Source of the DNA: an uncultured Gemmatimonadales bacterium
Lineage (GTDB): Bacteria; Gemmatimonadota; Gemmatimonadetes; Gemmatimonadales; Gemmatimonadaceae
Direction of reading: 5' to 3'
Length of the DNA: 64,000 nucleotides
NCBI GenBank assembly: GCA_963701965.1
Contig: OY969695.1
Coordinates: forward strand, 3,552,001-3,616,000
Part shown: positions 23,354-57,392 of the stretch, piece after piece
Position numbering within the stretch: the stretch's first letter is position 1
Layout: every line of letters begins with the position of its first letter
The notes under the pieces: model-generated
What the model saw: only the letters and a program-made list of their open reading frames with translations
The model's database searches: none
What the model was told of the DNA's origin: nothing
Made by a program: the position numbers and the translations under genes

Positions 23354-25879
23354 TCAAGTAGGATCCGCGGGTTGCAACAGCAGTTCGAAGGGCGCATATC
23401 CGTGAAGGGGATCGAATGCCTGATCCGTATGCAATGTTAGATCATAGGGCCGCCCTTCGCCAAACGACACGCGCAGGAACTGGACGGCCTGATCGCGCTG
23501 GCCAAGTTGCGCCGCGATCCGGGCCCGCTGGTAGGTGTTGCCACCGAACCGATAGGGGCGGTCCATGGCCGCCAACGCCGAGTCGCGCCGGGCCGCCTCG
23601 GCGCGGTCGCCGCGCCGCGCGGCCGACACCCCGAGCGCGCCGAGCGCCTCAATGTCGCTCGAAGGATCGGCGGCGAGCGCGAGCCAGATCGAGTCGGCGG
23701 CGGCCGGATGTCCCGACGCGTCCAGTGCCTCGGCGAGCCCGCTCCGCTCCAGCGGCCGCGCGCGTTCGGCCGCGGGTCGCGCCTCGTACCACCCGACCGC
23801 GCGCGTGGCGAATCCGCCGGCGACGGCGCCGTGCCCGTGGGCCCGGAGTTCCTCATACGCCAGCAGCATGAGCCGCCCGGCGTTCATCGTATCGCTCGGC
23901 GCCAACGGCGCACTCTCCTCGACCCGCGCCGTCAACTCATCGACCCGACCCAACGCCGCCAGCGCCCGGACCTCGGCCGAGAGGACGCGCCACGCGGTCG
24001 GGAACCGCGCGCGCCCCTCGCGCACGACCGCCAACTCGGCGCAATGGTCGCCCAGCAGGTGGTACGCCGCCGCCGGAAACTGCCAGTAGCCGTCCCACCC
24101 CTTCATCCAGCCCCGGTCGACGTCGACCTGCCGAAACGCGGCCAAGGCCGCGTGGGGGTGATCGAGCGCCAGCTCGAAATAGCCCACATCCAAGAGACCC
24201 TCACCCCCCGGCGCCGCCTCCACCATCTGATGCGCCGTGCGGACCGCCGCCGGCCAATCGCCGTGAATCTGGGCGATGGAGTTGTCCAGAAACCACCGAT
24301 CGAACGGCGCCAGACGCGCGCGCGACGCCCCCAGCCGGCCAATCAGCGAGTCGGCGCCGGCATACTCGTGCATCGTGAGATACGCGTCGACCGCCCACAG
24401 CAGCGGCTGCACGTAGGTCGTGTCCAGCGCCGTCGCCCGCAGATAGTGGGCGATCGCCTCGCGTTTTTCTCCACGGCCGTGCAGGTCGAGGCCGGTCACG
24501 AACTCCTGATAGGCCGCGTACGTGGGTGGGGACGTCGCCCGCTGTATCCAGTCGCTCAGGCGCGGATTGTAGAGGAGCGCCAGCGCGCCGGTCACGTGCT
24601 CGCGGAGTCGGTCGACCGCGATCAGCGGCGCCCGCACCGGACCGCTGACCGGATCCACCCCGCGCAGCACCCGGCCCGCCCGGGCGTCGGAGATCTGCGC
24701 CTGGAACCGCAGGGAGTCCCCGTCGCGATAGTACGATCCCCAGACGACCGTGCCCGCTCCCGTCTGCTCGGCCAACGCGCGGACCGTGCGGGGCGTCGAT
24801 GCGCCGCCCGTCAGCATCGCCGTCCGCGCGTCCACGACGTCGACGAGGCCGGTCTCGGCGAGGCGCTGCGTCACCCAGTCCGCCGCCATTCGACCCACGG
24901 GGTTGAGCGCGGTATCGCCCGTGTTGTTCTCGAATGGCGCGACGAGCACACGATTGGCGACGAGCACAGGCTGCCGCGATTGTCGCCAGGCCACCGCCAG
25001 GATCACTCCCACACCGACCACGGTGAGCGCCGCGATGAGCCCCCATCCGATGTGACGCCGCGGCGGTTTCGCCGCCGCCGGCACACTGGCGCTGACCCGA
25101 TCGCTCGCGCGGCCGCTGGATCGCGGTGCTGGCGTCAGGCGCTTGGGTGGGGCCAGCACCTCGGCGGGAGCCTCGCGCAGCTGGGTGGCGAAGGCCGTGA
25201 TCGAGGAGTCCGGCGGGACGTCGAGCTCCTGGCGGAGCAGCGTCTCGTACACCCGCGCGTGCTGCAGGGCTGCGGACCGGTCGCCCGAAGCGGCGAGCGA
25301 CCGCATGAGGTCGAGCGCCACGCCCGCGTCGAGGGGATCGACCGAGGCCAATCGCCGGAACCACCCGGCCTCGGCGCGACGGTCGCCGCGATCCTTGGCC
25401 TCAGACGCCAGCATCCGCAGCGACCGGCGGTACCGCTCGGCGAGATGGGTGCGCTCTTCCTCGGCCCAGCGCTCGAACTCCGGCGCGTCGCTCAGATAGA
25501 ACCCGTCGAGAAACGGCCCCCGGTAGATGGCGACAGCGCGCTCGTACTCCTGTCGCCCGATCGCGGCATGGAACTCGGCGAGATCCGTCGTGATGGCGTC
25601 CGGATTCAGGCGGAGGTCGGTCGTGCCGAGCACCAGATCGTCGCGTCCCAAATCCCGGCGCAGGGTGTAGACCGTCTGCGCCAACACGCGCCGCGCCTTC
25701 TCCTCGTCGCTGTCGGCCCACAGCTGTTGGATCAGCTTGGCGCGCGGGACCGCGCGCTCCCCCGCCCCCGCCAGCATGGCGAGCAGGGCCAAGGGACGCC
25801 GTTGCGCGGCAGCGCCGCCCAGACCCTCGGACGCCTCACGATCAATCGACAGGCCGCCAAACGTGCGAAGCCGTAGCAT
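23354..25879 (-). CDS. SARP/BTAD transcriptional-activator domain + TM helix + TolB-N-like + TPR protein
   Basis: LRLRTFGGL..QRRPLALLA..LRRDLG..YRGPFLDGF..FERW; TM IGWGLIAALTVVGVGVILAVAW; VLVAPFEN; TPR C-terminus. Confidence 0.85.
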   Translation of the reverse strand: MLRLRTFGGLSIDREASEGLGGAAAQRRPLALLAMLAGAGERAVPRAKLIQQLWADSDEEKARRVLAQTVYTLRRDLGRDDLVLGTTDLRLNPDAITTDLAEFHAAIGRQEYERAVAIYRGPFLDGFYLSDAPEFERWAEEERTHLAERYRRSLRMLASEAKDRGDRRAEAGWFRRLASVDPLDAGVALDLMRSLAASGDRSAALQHARVYETLLRQELDVPPDSSITAFATQLREAPAEVLAPPKRLTPAPRSSGRASDRVSASVPAAAKPPRRHIGWGLIAALTVVGVGVILAVAWRQSRQPVLVANRVLVAPFENNTGDTALNPVGRMAADWVTQRLAETGLVDVVDARTAMLTGGASTPRTVRALAEQTGAGTVVWGSYYRDGDSLRFQAQISDARAGRVLRGVDPVSGPVRAPLIAVDRLREHVTGALALLYNPRLSDWIQRATSPPTYAAYQEFVTGLDLHGRGEKREAIAHYLRATALDTTYVQPLLWAVDAYLTMHEYAGADSLIGRLGASRARLAPFDRWFLDNSIAQIHGDWPAAVRTAHQMVEAAPGGEGLLDVGYFELALDHPHAALAAFRQVDVDRGWMKGWDGYWQFPAAAYHLLGDHCAELAVVREGRARFPTAWRVLSAEVRALAALGRVDELTARVEESAPLAPSDTMNAGRLMLLAYEELRAHGHGAVAGGFATRAVGWYEARPAAERARPLERSGLAEALDASGHPAAADSIWLALAADPSSDIEALGALGVSAARRGDRAEAARRDSALAAMDRPYRFGGNTYQRARIAAQLGQRDQAVQFLRVSFGEGRPYDLTLHTDQAFDPLHGYAPFELLLQPADPT

Positions 25880-25882
25880 GGC

Positions 25883-25912
25883 TTGACAAGTTACAACGCA
25901 GCGGCCTACTCT
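25883..25912 (+). promoter_or_regulatory. sigma70-type promoter for the Cys leader / sulfurtransferase operon
   Basis: TTGACA (25883-25888), 18-nt spacer, TACTCT (25907-25912), 5 nt before leader ATG. Confidence 0.7.
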
Positions 25913-25917
25913 CCGAC

Positions 25918-26001
25918 ATGCATTGCGCTGTCACCATGCTGTGTTGTGCCCGTTGCGCCGCCGCCGTCAGGCGGTCGGGCGTGCTGGCGCGCAACGTGTG
26001 A
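25918..26001 (+). CDS. putative cysteine-rich attenuator leader peptide MHCAVTMLCCARCAAAVRRSGVLARNV (27 aa)
   Basis: 4 Cys codons in first 13 codons including tandem TGT TGT; directly after a promoter, upstream of a terminator and a sulfur-metabolism gene. Confidence 0.75.
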   Translation: MHCAVTMLCCARCAAAVRRSGVLARNV

Positions 26002-26030
26002 CGGACTGACACGATCCGCGATGGACCCCC

Positions 26031-26061
26031 GGCCGCTCTCAAACGAGCGGCCCTTTTTTTT
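26031..26061 (+). terminator. intrinsic terminator (attenuator) upstream of the sulfurtransferase
   Basis: GGCCGCTC-tcaaac-GAGCGGCC stem, C, then T8 (26054-26061); ends 17 nt before ATG 26079. Confidence 0.85.
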
Positions 26062-26078
26062 CACTGGAGCCTGCCGTC

Positions 26079-26975
26079 ATGTCGAGTACACTCACCGCTG
26101 AACCGGATGTCGCCAAGAAGGGGTATGTGCATCCCGAGGTGCTGGTCACGACCGCGTGGCTGGCCGAGCACCTGAACGATCCCAAGCTCCGCGTGCTGGA
26201 GAGCGACGAGGATGTCCTGCTCTATGACACCGGCCATATCCCGGGCGCACAGAAGATCGACTGGCACCACGACCTGAACGATCAGGTCGTCCGCGACTAT
26301 ATCTCGTCCGCGCAGTTCGAGGCGCTGCTCCGCCGCCTCGGCATCGACGAGACGACACCGGTCGTCTACTACGGCGACAAGAACAACTGGTGGGCGACGT
26401 ACGCGTTCTGGGTCTTCAAGCTCTTTGGCTTCGAGAATGTCCGCGTGCTCGATGGCGGACGGGCCAAGTGGGAAGCCGAAGGACGGCCGATGGTGACCGA
26501 CAAGAAGGCCTTTCCGCCGACGTCGTACAAGGCGCCCCAACGCTCCGACGGCAAGATTCGGGCGTTCATCGACGATGTGAAGAAGCACCTCGCGGCCCAT
26601 GGGAAGCTCGTGGACGTGCGCTCGCCGCAGGAGTACACGGGCGAGAAGATCCACATGCCCGACTACCCGCAAGAGGGCACGCTGCGCGGCGGGCACATCC
26701 CGACGGCCAAGAGCGTCCCCTGGGCGCGGGCGGCCAACGCCGACGGCACGTTCAAGTCCGCCGACGATCTACGCGCGATCTACGAAAAGGAGCAGGGCCT
26801 CGCCAAGACCGATGACGTCATCGCCTACTGCCGCATTGGCGAGCGGTCGTCGCACACGTGGTTCGTCCTCACCTACCTGCTCGGCTACGACCGCGTGCGC
26901 AACTACGACGGCAGCTGGACGGAGTGGGGGAACGCGGTGCGGGCGCCCATCGAGAAAGGCACCGGCACGCCGTGA
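26079..26975 (+). CDS. sseA: two-domain rhodanese/sulfurtransferase (SseA/CysA-like)
   Basis: [30 protein letters not shown], active-site [19 protein letters not shown]. Confidence 0.93.
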
Positions 26976-28156
26976 ACGTGCACGTCGCGCCCCGGGCCGC
27001 CGAGCTCGGAGTCGAAGGCGCATTCGCCGTGTACGCGGCCGGTCGTCAGTTGGAAGCCGAGGGGCGCGACGTCATCCATCTGGAGATCGGCGAACCGGAT
27101 TTTCCGACGCCGCCCCACATCGTGGAGGCCGGCATCCGCGCGATGCGGGACGGCCACACGGGCTACACGGAATCCGCCGGCATCCCCGCGCTCCGTATGC
27201 GGATCGCCGAGGCGATGGCGCCGCGTGGCGTTCCCGCCGGTCCGGAGAACGTCGTCGTGACACCGGGCACGAAGCAGCTGGTGTTCCTGGCCCTGCAGGC
27301 CCTGCTCGAGCCCGGCGACGAAGTGCTCGTGCCCGACCCCGCGTATCCGGCGTACTTCGAATCGACCCGGTTCGCCGGCGGTCGCCCCCTACGCTATAGC
27401 GTGCACGCAGAGCGGTCGGATGGCGTCGATCTGGCCGAAATCGCGGGGCGCATCACGCCCCGGACGCGCGCGCTGGTGATCAGTTCGCCGCACAACCCGA
27501 CGGGGCACTCCCTGCCGTTACCCGTGCTCGAGGCGCTGGCCGAATTGGCGGTGCGGCACGATCTCGTCGTGCTCACCGACGAGATCTATCACCAACTGAC
27601 GTTCGCCGCCGCTCCCGCGCCGTCGATCGCCGCGTTTCCGGGGATGGCGGAGCGGACGATCGTCGTGGACGGCTTCTCCAAAGCGTACGCCATGACCGGT
27701 TGGCGTCTGGGCTATGGCGTGATGCCCGAGGCCTTGGCGCGCACAGTGACGAAGCTCCTCAACAACAGCAATGCCTGCGTCACGACGTTCGTGCAGCACG
27801 CCGGCATCGCCGCGCTCACCGGCCCGCAGGACGCCGTGTGGGCCATGCGCGACGAGTATCGGGCGCGGCGGGATCTGGTGGTCGACGCGCTCAATGCGAT
27901 CGATGGCGTGACGTGCGCGCGGCCGGGCGGGGCGTTCTACGCGTTCCCGCGCGTCCCCGGCGACGCCGACGCGCTGGCCCGCCGGCTCCTCCACGAGCAC
28001 GGGGTCGGCGCACTGAGCGGGACCGCGTTCGGCCCGGGAGGGCTGGGGTCTCTGCGATTCTCGTTCGTCCGTTCGCGCGCGCAGCTGACGGAGGCCATGC
28101 GGCGGTTCACACTCGCCGTGCAATCATCCGCATCCCGTGACGCGGTCGTAGCGTGA
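26972..28156 (+). CDS. PLP-dependent class I aminotransferase (aspartate aminotransferase-like)
   Basis: GTGA overlap; [45 protein letters not shown]. Confidence 0.9.
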
Positions 28157-55196: not shown

Positions 55197-55277
55197 ATGA
55201 GACACTCCGCGCCTATGCCCACGACGGTCACGACGACGCGGTCCCTTTCCGGGGACGGCGCGACGGATCGCGACTAG
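55197..55277 (+). CDS. threonine-rich attenuator leader peptide MRHSAPMPTTVTTTRSLSGDGATDRD (26 aa)
   Basis: Five ACG Thr codons in six consecutive codons (55221-55238), upstream of a terminator and hom-thrC. Confidence 0.85.
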   Translation: MRHSAPMPTTVTTTRSLSGDGATDRD

Positions 55278-55298
55278 CTGGCGCTCAGTCGGACCGAC

Positions 55299-55336
55299 GC
55301 GGCCCCCCGGACCAGCCGGGGGGCCGCTTTGTTTTT
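55299..55336 (+). terminator. intrinsic terminator (thr attenuator)
   Basis: 12-bp perfect stem GCGGCCCCCCGG-accag-CCGGGGGGCCGC followed by TTTGTTTTT. Confidence 0.9.
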
Positions 55337-55362: not shown

Positions 55363-56341
55363 ATGACAACCGCTCGAATGCAATCCTATCGGGGTTGCCG
55401 TTTACGGCCTCGGCACCGTCGGCTCGGCCGCCGTGGAGATCATGGCCTCGGGATCGGCCGATCTCTTCGCCCGACACGATCTCCGCCTCGCGGTGCGCCA
55501 CGTGGTCGTGCGCGACGTCGCGCGCGCCCGCGCCGTGGAGTTGGACCCCGCGCTCTTGACCGATGACTGGGTCCGCCCCCTCGAGGATCCGGGCGTCGGG
55601 CTCGTCGTCGAAGCCATGGGCGGTCTCGACCCGGCCGCCTCCGTCGTCCGCCGCGCGCTCGCCAGCGGCCGGCACGTGGTCACCGCCAACAAGGCGCTCA
55701 TCGCGTCCCAGGGGGCCGCGCTCGAAGCGCTGGCCGACGCCCACCGGGTGGCGCTCCGCTACGAGGCGGCGGTCGGCGGGGCGATCCCCTTGATCCACAC
55801 CCTCCGCGGCACGCTCGCGGGCAACCAGATTACCCGGGTGCGGGGCATCCTGAACGGGACGACCAATTTCATCCTGACGCGCATGAGCGATCACGGCATC
55901 TCGTTTGCCGCCGCGCTGGCCGAGGCCCAACGCCTCGGTTTCGCGGAAGCCGATCCCTCGGCCGACGTGTCGGGACTCGACGCGGCCCAGAAGCTCGTGA
56001 TCCTCGCGCGGCATGCCTTCGGTCACTGGGTGCCCGTGGAGTGCGTCGCCCGCACGGGCATCGCCGACATCTCGCCGCTGGAGATCGCCCAGGCGCGCCA
56101 CGCCGGCGAGACCTACAAGCTCATCGCCGAGGCCGTGCTGACCGAGGGCCGTCTGCGGCTGCACGTCGGTCCCCAGCGGCTCCCCGCGCGGGATCCCATG
56201 GCTAACGTCCGGGATGAGTACAACGCGGTGGCGATCGACGGCGATTTCGCCGGCTCGTTGACGTTCATCGGACGGGGCGCCGGCGCGTTGCCGACGGGTT
56301 CGGCGGTGTACGACGACATCGTCGCCACGCTCCGCAACTGA
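55363..56341 (+). CDS. hom: homoserine dehydrogenase, no C-terminal ACT domain; frameshift between 55363 and 55394
   Basis: GGAG SD + ATG 55363 is one base out of frame with VAVYGLGTVG; VVTANK, YEAAVGGAIP, GILNGTTNFIL, GFAEADP, GRGAG..PTGSAV. Confidence 0.9.
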
Positions 56342-56345
56342 TCGC

Positions 56346-57392
56346 ATGGGCATCGGTGTACTCGAGCGGTGGGCGTCGCTCCTGCCCGTCACCCCGGCCA
56401 CGCCGGCGCTGACACTGGGGGAAGGGGACACGCCGCTCCTGGCGGCGCCGCGGCTCGCCGCGTGGGTCGGCGTCGAAGAGCTGTACATCAAGTTCGAGGG
56501 CATGAACCCGACCGCATCGTTCAAGGACCGCGGCATGGTCGTGGCCGTGGCCAAGGCGATCGAGGAGGGGGCGCGCGTCGTAATCTGCGCGTCGACCGGC
56601 AACACGGCGGCCAGCGCGGCCGCCTACGCCGCCCGCGCCGGGCTCACGGCGATCGTGCTGTTGCCGGGCGGAAAGGTGGCCATCGCCAAGGTCGCCCAGG
56701 CCTTGGCCTACGGCGCGCGGGCCTTGGCCCTGGAGGGCGGATTCGATGCCGCGCTCGACGTGGCGCGCGAGTTGGTCGCCCACCATCCCGCGGCGCTCGT
56801 GAATTCCGTGAACCCGCACCGCATCGCGGGACAGGCGACCGCGGCCTACGAGATCTCGGATGCGCTGGGCTGCGCGCCCAATGTGCTCGCGCTGCCCGTG
56901 GGCAATGGCGGAAACATCACGGCGTACTGGGCCGGATTTCGACGCTACCTCGAGCGCGGCGTGACGGCGACGCTGCCGCGCATCGTGGGCGGCCAGGCGG
57001 CGGGAGCGGCCCCGCTCGTACTCGGCCATCCAGTCGAGAACCCCGAGACGATAGCGACCGCGATCCGTATTGGCCGGCCGGCGAGTTGGAACACCGCCGT
57101 TGCCGCCGTCGCCGAGTCCGGCGGCGAGTTCCGGGCGATCACCGACGAAGCGATTCTGGACGCGTACCGCCAGGTGTCGCGGCTCGAGGGCATTTTTTGC
57201 GAGCCCTCGTCGGCCGCTGGTATCGCCGCCCTCCGCGCGAGCGTCCTAGCAGGTGGCACGCCGTCGGCGACTCGCTGTGTTTGCGTCTGCACCGGGCATG
57301 GGCTCAAGGATGCCCAACAGGCAGTCCCGGACCGCGAGATCGCGACACTACCGGCCACGGCGCGGGCCGTTACAAACATATTGGGCTGGTAA
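56346..57392 (+). CDS. thrC: threonine synthase
   Basis: TLGEGDTPL, NPTASFKDRG, CASTGNT, PVGNGGNITA, ETIATAIRIG, TGHGLKD. Confidence 0.94.
   Translation: MGIGVLERWASLLPVTPATPALTLGEGDTPLLAAPRLAAWVGVEELYIKFEGMNPTASFKDRGMVVAVAKAIEEGARVVICASTGNTAASAAAYAARAGLTAIVLLPGGKVAIAKVAQALAYGARALALEGGFDAALDVARELVAHHPAALVNSVNPHRIAGQATAAYEISDALGCAPNVLALPVGNGGNITAYWAGFRRYLERGVTATLPRIVGGQAAGAAPLVLGHPVENPETIATAIRIGRPASWNTAVAAVAESGGEFRAITDEAILDAYRQVSRLEGIFCEPSSAAGIAALRASVLAGGTPSATRCVCVCTGHGLKDAQQAVPDREIATLPATARAVTNILGW

Follow-up and report, generated by a model that had tools for sequence, protein, structure and literature searches.

The window (the whole 64-kb stretch of DNA analyzed, to which all plain positions refer) encodes on its plus strand, at 26079..26975, a tandem-rhodanese sulfurtransferase of the SseA/Thermus-rhodanese type, with two Pfam Rhodanese domains and the active-site motif CRIGER, which is assigned to thiosulfate sulfurtransferases in a passage of PMC6856128. 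Its closest named relatives come from Gemmatimonadota, with 72-76% identity, and its best PDB matches are 1uar, 8k55, 3p3a and 3hzu (SseA, E 1.8e-109), above 3hwi (CysA2, E 2.2e-89); judged by sequence, CysA2 is a more distant relation of the enzyme than are Thermus rhodanese and mycobacterial SseA. The next gene, for a class I/II PLP aminotransferase (26972..28156, plus strand), overlaps the sulfurtransferase stop codon by 4 nt, and the two are likely co-transcribed. Among the loci compared, the aminotransferase adjoins the sulfurtransferase only in L001, L006 and L009; other leader-bearing loci continue with SufE-, NifU-, OsmC- or ThrB-like proteins, labels that were given to the translations by eye.

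Upstream of the sulfurtransferase gene, on the same strand, a predicted promoter consists of a -35 hexamer, TTGACA (25883..25888), which is unchanged in all seven aligned close loci, and, after an 18-nt spacer, a -10-like hexamer of the form TANNNT, TACTCT (25907..25912), located 5 nt ahead of the ATG (25918) of a leader ORF. This placement of the -10 implies a leaderless transcript for the ORF, which spans 27 codons and a TGA at 25999-26001 (25918..26001 overall) and has Cys at codons 3, 9, 10 and 13 (25924, 25942, 25945 and 25954). Behind it come a predicted intrinsic terminator (26031..26061), composed of an 8-bp stem (26031-26052, -16.3 kcal/mol), one C and eight T residues (26054-26061), and then GGAG (26066..26069), the likely ribosome-binding site of the sulfurtransferase. 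In the classical scheme, the regions of an attenuator are numbered so that the alternative helices are 1:2, 2:3 and 3:4, and the leader RNA sequence contains three mutually exclusive pairings of this kind, plus the U-tract. The 5' strand of the antiterminator (region 2 core, 25970..25979), conserved in 14 aligned family loci, can form a duplex with the 3' strand (region 3, 26027..26037), which overlaps the 5' arm of the terminator; within these strands, nucleotides 25971-25979 can pair throughout with 26028-26036, once as G-U. The predicted 1:2, or anti-antiterminator, helix (25943-25965 with 25970-25995, thus spanning 25943..25995) appears in the minimum-energy, centroid and constrained folds. 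The promoter, leader, Cys codons, terminator and pairing segments all lie where the first-pass annotation had placed them, and the competing hairpin that it proposed at 25961-25974 is present as well, but only as the tip of the longer 1:2 helix.

Taken by itself, this locus is only suggestive; the evidence that goes beyond chance comes from conservation and the masked-folding tests. A terminator scan found two terminators, the one of the leader among them, where 0.9 would be expected from shuffles; the 164-nt RNA as a whole shows no unusual stability relative to shuffles (z -1.18), and an Rfam scan of the 64-kb window at gathering scores gave no match. One could imagine a short, constitutively terminated RNA with an incidental ORF, the sulfurtransferase being controlled otherwise, for example, by the divergent BTAD/winged-helix regulator, the gene for which begins at 25879 on the minus strand. 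The -10 is weak, matching only T, A and the last T, and the leader promoter was not listed by a consensus promoter scan, while four Cys codons occur in 496 of 20,000 base shuffles of the leader (2.5%). Nevertheless, we regard this explanation as very unlikely: the regulator is not conserved, with L002-L006 carrying a different, 322-aa divergent gene in its place and retaining the leader, and chance does not explain the fixed spacing and the folding switch reported below. The BTAD regulator was also rejected as a part of the system. At this junction (25880-25893), the promoters stand back to back, with a minus-strand -10-like hexamer, TAACTT, that overlaps the -35, lies 8 nt before the divergent ATG and is kept in L002-L005 despite the different divergent gene; the divergent gene looks leaderless, too.

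The genome to which the window belongs (G000, 95% complete) yields two cysK/M matches over the cut-off and a nitrite/sulfite reductase match, with no CysE over the cut-off and no PAPS reductase match. This gene set fits, and does not show, reliance on reduced sulfur. No leader was seen directly upstream of the two cysK/M genes. Elsewhere in the genome, a rhodanese matched in two pieces adjoins a PALP-family gene (C1:2677123-2679348), and a SAM-II riboswitch (C1:3860753-3860828) is divergent from a cysK gene.

We examined 233 sulfurtransferase loci; a terminator passed our filter in 77, and part of the latter were inspected by eye. The same layout was found at 39 of the 233 loci (36 from Gemmatimonadota and 3 from Chloroflexota); these curated leaders comprise 32 of the 153 loci in the genome set (the focal one included), 4 of the 22 records labelled Gemmatimonadota and 3 of the 18 labelled Chloroflexota, all of which are lower bounds. 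The majority of the orthologous sulfurtransferases have no leader and are located inside operons, and genome G012 contributes solely a locus in which the sulfurtransferase lacks the leader ORF. A selection made blindly to Cys required a terminator preceded by a -35-like hexamer, with an ORF that starts 35-40 nt after the hexamer and ends 10-55 nt short of the terminator; of the 20 ORFs obtained, all contained at least one Cys and 18 contained at least two, although at one of these loci, L141, a one-mismatch hexamer also allows an alternative that is free of Cys. In several homologs, the start codon lies 42-63 nt past the -35, and these look leadered. Across the 39 curated leaders, Cys accounts for 118 of the 995 codons (11.9%), compared with 78 of 1912 codons when the two remaining frames are read and 0.70% in the long ORFs of the focal genome. 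Most of these Cys codons are TGT (74 of 118, versus 988 of 5100 in long ORFs, a contrast inflated by close kin), and either codon, TGT or TGC, can stand at the sensing position. Related loci are kin and not independent. Side observations in this set include L166, L081 and L219, where a -35-like hexamer is followed almost immediately by a terminator-like hairpin before the sulfurtransferase, with no leader ORF, so that the leader has possibly been lost. There is also L088, from a record labelled Cellvibrionaceae, in which a 13-codon ORF with four Cys near the stop codon and a 13-bp terminator precede the sulfurtransferase; its masked scan is flat and its geometry different, and it was excluded from the curated leaders.

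A Cys-rich ORF of this kind might encode a functional small peptide, metal-binding or modified, with the terminator merely ending its gene, and CC and CxC patterns do recur in the leaders. However, apart from Cys, both length and sequence vary widely, an NCBIfam scan of the focal leader peptide found no family at E<=10, and downstream of the Cys codons, the RNA can base-pair with the terminator arm. We find this alternative very unlikely, the least probable of those considered here.

The position of the antiterminator core relative to the Cys codons is constrained. The core lies 17 nt past the start of a Cys codon in 10 of the 15 same-family loci and 11-20 nt past one in all 15, even though the leaders in this family span 21-50 codons. 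The spacing follows the last Cys, given that L002-L005 use Cys10 whereas the focal locus and L006 have three extra codons and use Cys13. The frame of the core is fixed as well, and an Arg-Pro/Arg-Ser motif recurs in the leader peptides. Across 14 aligned family loci, 83.6% of the cells of the core are paired. The core appears conserved rather than covarying: only 2 of the 10 pairs changed on both sides, and 34-61 of 500 shuffles scored as high, which is not significant; neither was a cross-pairing comparison, in which the cognate partner ranked first in only 2 of 30 tests.

To follow the ribosome through the leader, we masked the RNA as far as 13 nt beyond the first nucleotide of the codon in the A site, for each codon in turn, and recorded the free-energy gain from forming the terminator, a difference used in place of pair probabilities, which saturate. 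This gain is -16.7 kcal/mol with no ribosome, -12 with the ribosome at Cys9, -11 at Cys10, -2.7 at Cys13 and -13.7 at the stop codon. With footprints of 10-17 nt, the peak of the scan is never more than one codon away from Cys13; with 9 nt, it moves to codon 15. In the constrained folds, the long 1:2 helix is replaced by a 2:3 helix, which engages the 5' arm of the terminator; thus, by computation, the antiterminator excludes the terminator and is free only with a ribosome on the control codons. The difference between the Cys and stop positions amounts to 11.0 kcal/mol at the focal locus, compared with 0.6 +/- 2.0 in dinucleotide shuffles of the ORF, 0 of 36 of which were as high. Among the same-family leaders, 10 of 11 exceed all 36 shuffles, L144 being the exception, whereas outside the family, just 6 of 19 leaders exceed all 24 shuffles; in four of the latter group (L051, L058, L180 and L205), the chosen codon gives no switch, and the switch is small in L217 and L113. 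As positive controls, the His and Thr leaders of the same genome peak on His13 and Thr14, respectively, and the Ile/Leu/Val leader gives a plateau across the control codons. A circular-shift test placed the peak 1.95 codons from a Cys, compared with 4.75 (0 of 5000), but it is biased by the rarity of Cys near the stop codon, so we take the evidence from the shuffle tests instead. Owing to the long 1:2 helix, Cys13 (25954..25956), 17 nt ahead of the antiterminator core, rather than the Cys9-Cys10 pair, is the predicted sensing codon here.

The same folds bear on whether control could be translational, as in mycobacterial Ms5788A, such that the leader hides or frees the sulfurtransferase ribosome-binding site and the hairpin plays no part. 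This is how the proven cysteine attenuator operates, and it governs a sulfurtransferase as well, as reported in a section of 10.1101/834739; in the folds, placing the ribosome at Cys13 increases the computed unpaired probability of GGAG, from 0.10-0.21 to 0.34. Against this, the Cys region pairs inside the leader and not with the ribosome-binding site, and every curated locus has a hairpin with a U-rich tract, at a distance from the start codon (19-141 nt) so variable that no conserved pairing with the ribosome-binding site is possible. We consider purely translational control as improbable as constitutive termination.

The element matches a classical attenuator in every computable feature except covariation. 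It is likely a ribosome-mediated transcription attenuator, in which stalling on the Cys codons would lead to read-through of the intrinsic terminator into the sulfurtransferase gene, although both the sensing of cysteine and termination are inferred. Under this mechanism, transcription would start at or beside the leader AUG, and 70S ribosomes would load on the leaderless RNA. With no ribosome, region 1 would pair with region 2 and, in the computed folds, the terminator would be favored; a ribosome at the stop codon would cover region 2, with the same predicted outcome. With Cys13 in the A site, by contrast, region 1 would be covered and region 2 free for region 3, such that the computed advantage of the terminator would drop. 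When Cys-tRNA is low, a ribosome stalled at Cys13 might thus allow the 2:3 helix to form ahead of the synthesis of region 4, and the polymerase would continue. Given that the terminator is still favored by 2.7 kcal/mol at equilibrium with the Cys13 stall, read-through needs kinetic priority of the 2:3 helix. The putative purpose would be to make more sulfurtransferase to mobilize reduced sulfur when cysteine is short.

The first-pass annotation had proposed stalling on Cys codons with read-through under cysteine limitation, and this proposal gains support from the conservation of the Cys codons, the spacing and the terminator and from the folding switch, with cysteine sensing still an assumption. 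The expected Cys codons upstream of orthologous sulfurtransferases were borne out by the Cys-blind ORFs and the curated leaders; the antiterminator predicted about 15 nt past the last Cys and overlapping the terminator 5' arm has its spacing and its terminator conserved in the family loci; and folding with and without ribosome masking revealed a switch centered on the last Cys codon, as fits an attenuator. Stem covariation, which the annotation had also proposed as a check, did not reach significance; the core is conserved instead, and the Cys codons and the terminator are kept.

The signal might be something other than, or additional to, Cys-tRNA: the leader could sense Met codons too, or a thiol, persulfide or metal ligand could act on the Cys-bearing nascent peptide and cause ribosome arrest. 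Met is enriched in the leaders (45 of 995 codons, versus 8 of 1912 in the other frames), often just ahead of the Cys run, Met-rich leaders occur on the same scaffold, and the fixed core frame results in the recurring Arg-Pro/Arg-Ser motif. On the other hand, the scan peaks at Cys13, six codons beyond Met7, the leader peptides share little except Cys, and where the same scaffold precedes biosynthetic genes, the peak falls on His, Leu or Tyr codons in keeping with the pathway, as plain decoding predicts. A different or second signal is therefore unlikely in our view, although somewhat less so than the other alternatives, and attenuation by plain decoding of Cys codons remains the preferred reading.

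The scaffold itself was traced with a covariance model built from the 14 family loci and searched in 150 family genomes, which gave 41 non-training matches at E<=0.0016, of which 39 were examined, with one frame picked by hand where several leader frames were offered. Cys-bearing leaders were found in 18 of the 39, although the model included part of the Cys region, which makes the Cys content of the top matches partly circular. Of these 18 leaders, 17 precede sulfur- or thiol-linked families (9 rhodanese, 2 cysK, SBP56, TauE, 2 OsmC, ThiS and HemD-like), and 1 precedes a gene without an assigned family. Another ten matches are His leaders before hisG (7), a Leu leader before a leuC-like gene (1) and Tyr/Phe leaders before pheA and aroF (2), none of them with more than one Cys; the remainder comprise 5 Met-rich leaders, 1 Ile/Leu/Thr-rich leader, 2 SAM-II riboswitch loci without a clear leader and 3 matches with no leader. 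Since on one scaffold the sensor codons agree with the pathway encoded downstream, the best reading of the Cys codons at the focal locus is that they are the sensor.

In several of the loci, a SAM-II riboswitch (RF00521) lies upstream of the leader-plus-terminator unit (L256, L257, L261, L266, L268, L272 and L277). In these tandems, Met-rich leaders precede thrC-like, cysH, aminotransferase and panB-like genes, and the leaders of L266 and L277 are of the Cys type; the repeat in L261 encodes Met-Arg in the frame that bears the stop codon, and Cys-Ala/Glu in a different frame. L275 and L282 have a SAM-II riboswitch followed by the same terminator scaffold, with no clear leader, before panB-like genes. 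The tandems with a leader are candidate two-input switches and Met-codon attenuators.

A genome-wide leader detector examined 1164 short ORFs of the focal genome and listed 40, most of which are probably chance. A second Cys leader (C1:4733863, plus strand; L234, ~364-560), a further positive control of the masked scan, has a perfect -35, a 12-bp terminator and a masked peak at its Cys13, and was not retrieved by the covariance model; behind it lie the gene of a TonB receptor of the SusC type, which is apparently divided between two frames, and that of SusD, which suggests a sulfur-compound importer. Within the window, a Thr-rich leader ORF with a strong terminator (55197-55300, plus strand) precedes the genes for homoserine dehydrogenase and threonine synthase (55394-57389), and its masked peak falls on the last Thr; by its sequence features, this is an ordinary thr attenuator. 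A leaderless, Arg/Pro-rich ORF of 33 codons (C1:2542684, minus strand; L235), followed by a terminator and an operon with argB and argD, contains four different Arg codons with a broad masked-folding switch over them and is a candidate arginine attenuator. Genes named from their translations lie behind a leaderless His leader (C1:2565999, plus strand; hisG-like) and an Ile/Leu/Val leader (C1:4253458, minus strand; ilvB-ilvH-ilvC-like). A Trp leader candidate at C1:3146933 was rejected because it is inside the end of the frame of another gene and no trp gene is downstream.

These observations could be brought together in a broader proposal, which we put forward at even balance between acceptance and doubt, namely, that Gemmatimonadaceae have one reusable attenuator scaffold, with a shared core and terminator stem, in which the sensor codons are swapped per operon. 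The focal locus would then be the Cys version and a node of a termination-based sulfur "ribulon" that includes the sulfurtransferase, cysK, sulfur carriers and the SusC/SusD importer, with Met-codon versions stacked behind SAM-II riboswitches as two-input sulfur switches. The element leaves the textbook mechanism unchanged. It is, rather, small and fully specified, and as a test case it makes one sharp prediction, that Cys13 matters most; through the putative sensing, it links SseA-type sulfurtransferases, the role of which is uncertain, to cysteine shortage, and it extends leader-peptide attenuation, as a prediction, to the widespread phylum Gemmatimonadota.

In the literature searched, the only experimentally tested cysteine attenuator that we found acts on translation, and the termination type is represented by predictions only (PMC8632094, PMC4007540, in the portions available). 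A full-text search found no paper on leader-peptide attenuation for Gemmatimonadota, although most subscription journals are outside that search and an earlier description may be missed; the accessible sections of PMC13613805, PMC2965389 and PMC13236596 contain no Cys leader of the termination type. The first-pass annotation knew of no Cys leader working through an intrinsic terminator in this lineage, and this stands for Gemmatimonadota in what was found; the kind as such had, however, been predicted in Rhodobacterales, in the relevant part of PMC8632094.

In classical attenuation, as summarized in a passage of 10.1101/834739, a short ORF with cognate codons, alternative helices and an intrinsic terminator precede the gene. 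The focal element resembles the trpL, hisL and thrL attenuators in its cognate-codon ORF, the 1:2, 2:3 and 3:4 helices and an intrinsic terminator between the leader and the first gene, but differs from them in that cysteine would be sensed, the leader is apparently leaderless, and the target is a sulfurtransferase rather than a committed biosynthetic enzyme; in addition, it has no sequence match to Rfam families. In mycobacteria, cysteine attenuation has been proven to operate via translation, not termination (Canestrari et al., 10.1101/834739), and the authors state, in the section available, that they were aware of no previous case of cysteine attenuation mediated by a uORF. The focal element has in common with Ms5788A and the "Cys ribulon" a leaderless Cys-bearing sORF (leaderless by predicted geometry in our case), a sulfurtransferase under control (putatively so here) and several loci per genome. 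According to the same source, in Ms5788A the ribosome-binding site is hidden, the transcriptional reporter is unresponsive and the Cys run is at the 3' end, whereas in the focal leader, the Cys codons are in the middle of the ORF, 14 codons before the stop, a terminator follows, and the enzyme is nearer to SseA than to CysA2. The Cys leaders of actinobacterial cys operons are similarly Cys-codon ORFs before sulfur genes; for these, the portion available of Seliverstov et al. 2005 (PMC1262725) reports no conserved terminator hairpins and suggests Rho-dependent control, so that the focal element differs by its terminator. A Met/Thr/Cys leader in Streptomyces lividans is described, in a passage of PMC8079986, as having an unclear mechanism. 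Another related element is the cysS leader of Deinococcus deserti (de Groot et al. 2014, PMC4007540), a leaderless short ORF with two Cys and a mapped start, for which transcription attenuation has been proposed as it is here for our predicted leaderless ORF; that leader has ten codons and lies before cysS, and no terminator is described in the accessible text. A further counterpart is uORFC-8-2 of Rhodobacterales cysS, predicted by Brewer et al. 2021 (PMC8632094) to combine a Cys-Cys uORF and an intrinsic terminator; it shares with the focal element the tandem Cys codons in a short ORF, the ensuing terminator-like stem with a U run and the proposed mechanism. As described in the part available, uORFC-8-2 is found in Alphaproteobacteria, exclusively before cysS, whereas the focal type occurs in Gemmatimonadota and Chloroflexota, before sulfurtransferase or other sulfur genes, a distinction drawn by description. 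The element is thus not a member of the mycobacterial family or of the Rhodobacterales family, the latter being set apart by gene and lineage. What is new is the phylum, the combination of a predicted leaderless ORF with a terminator, the sulfurtransferase target and the shared scaffold, for a probable attenuator of a kind already predicted in print.
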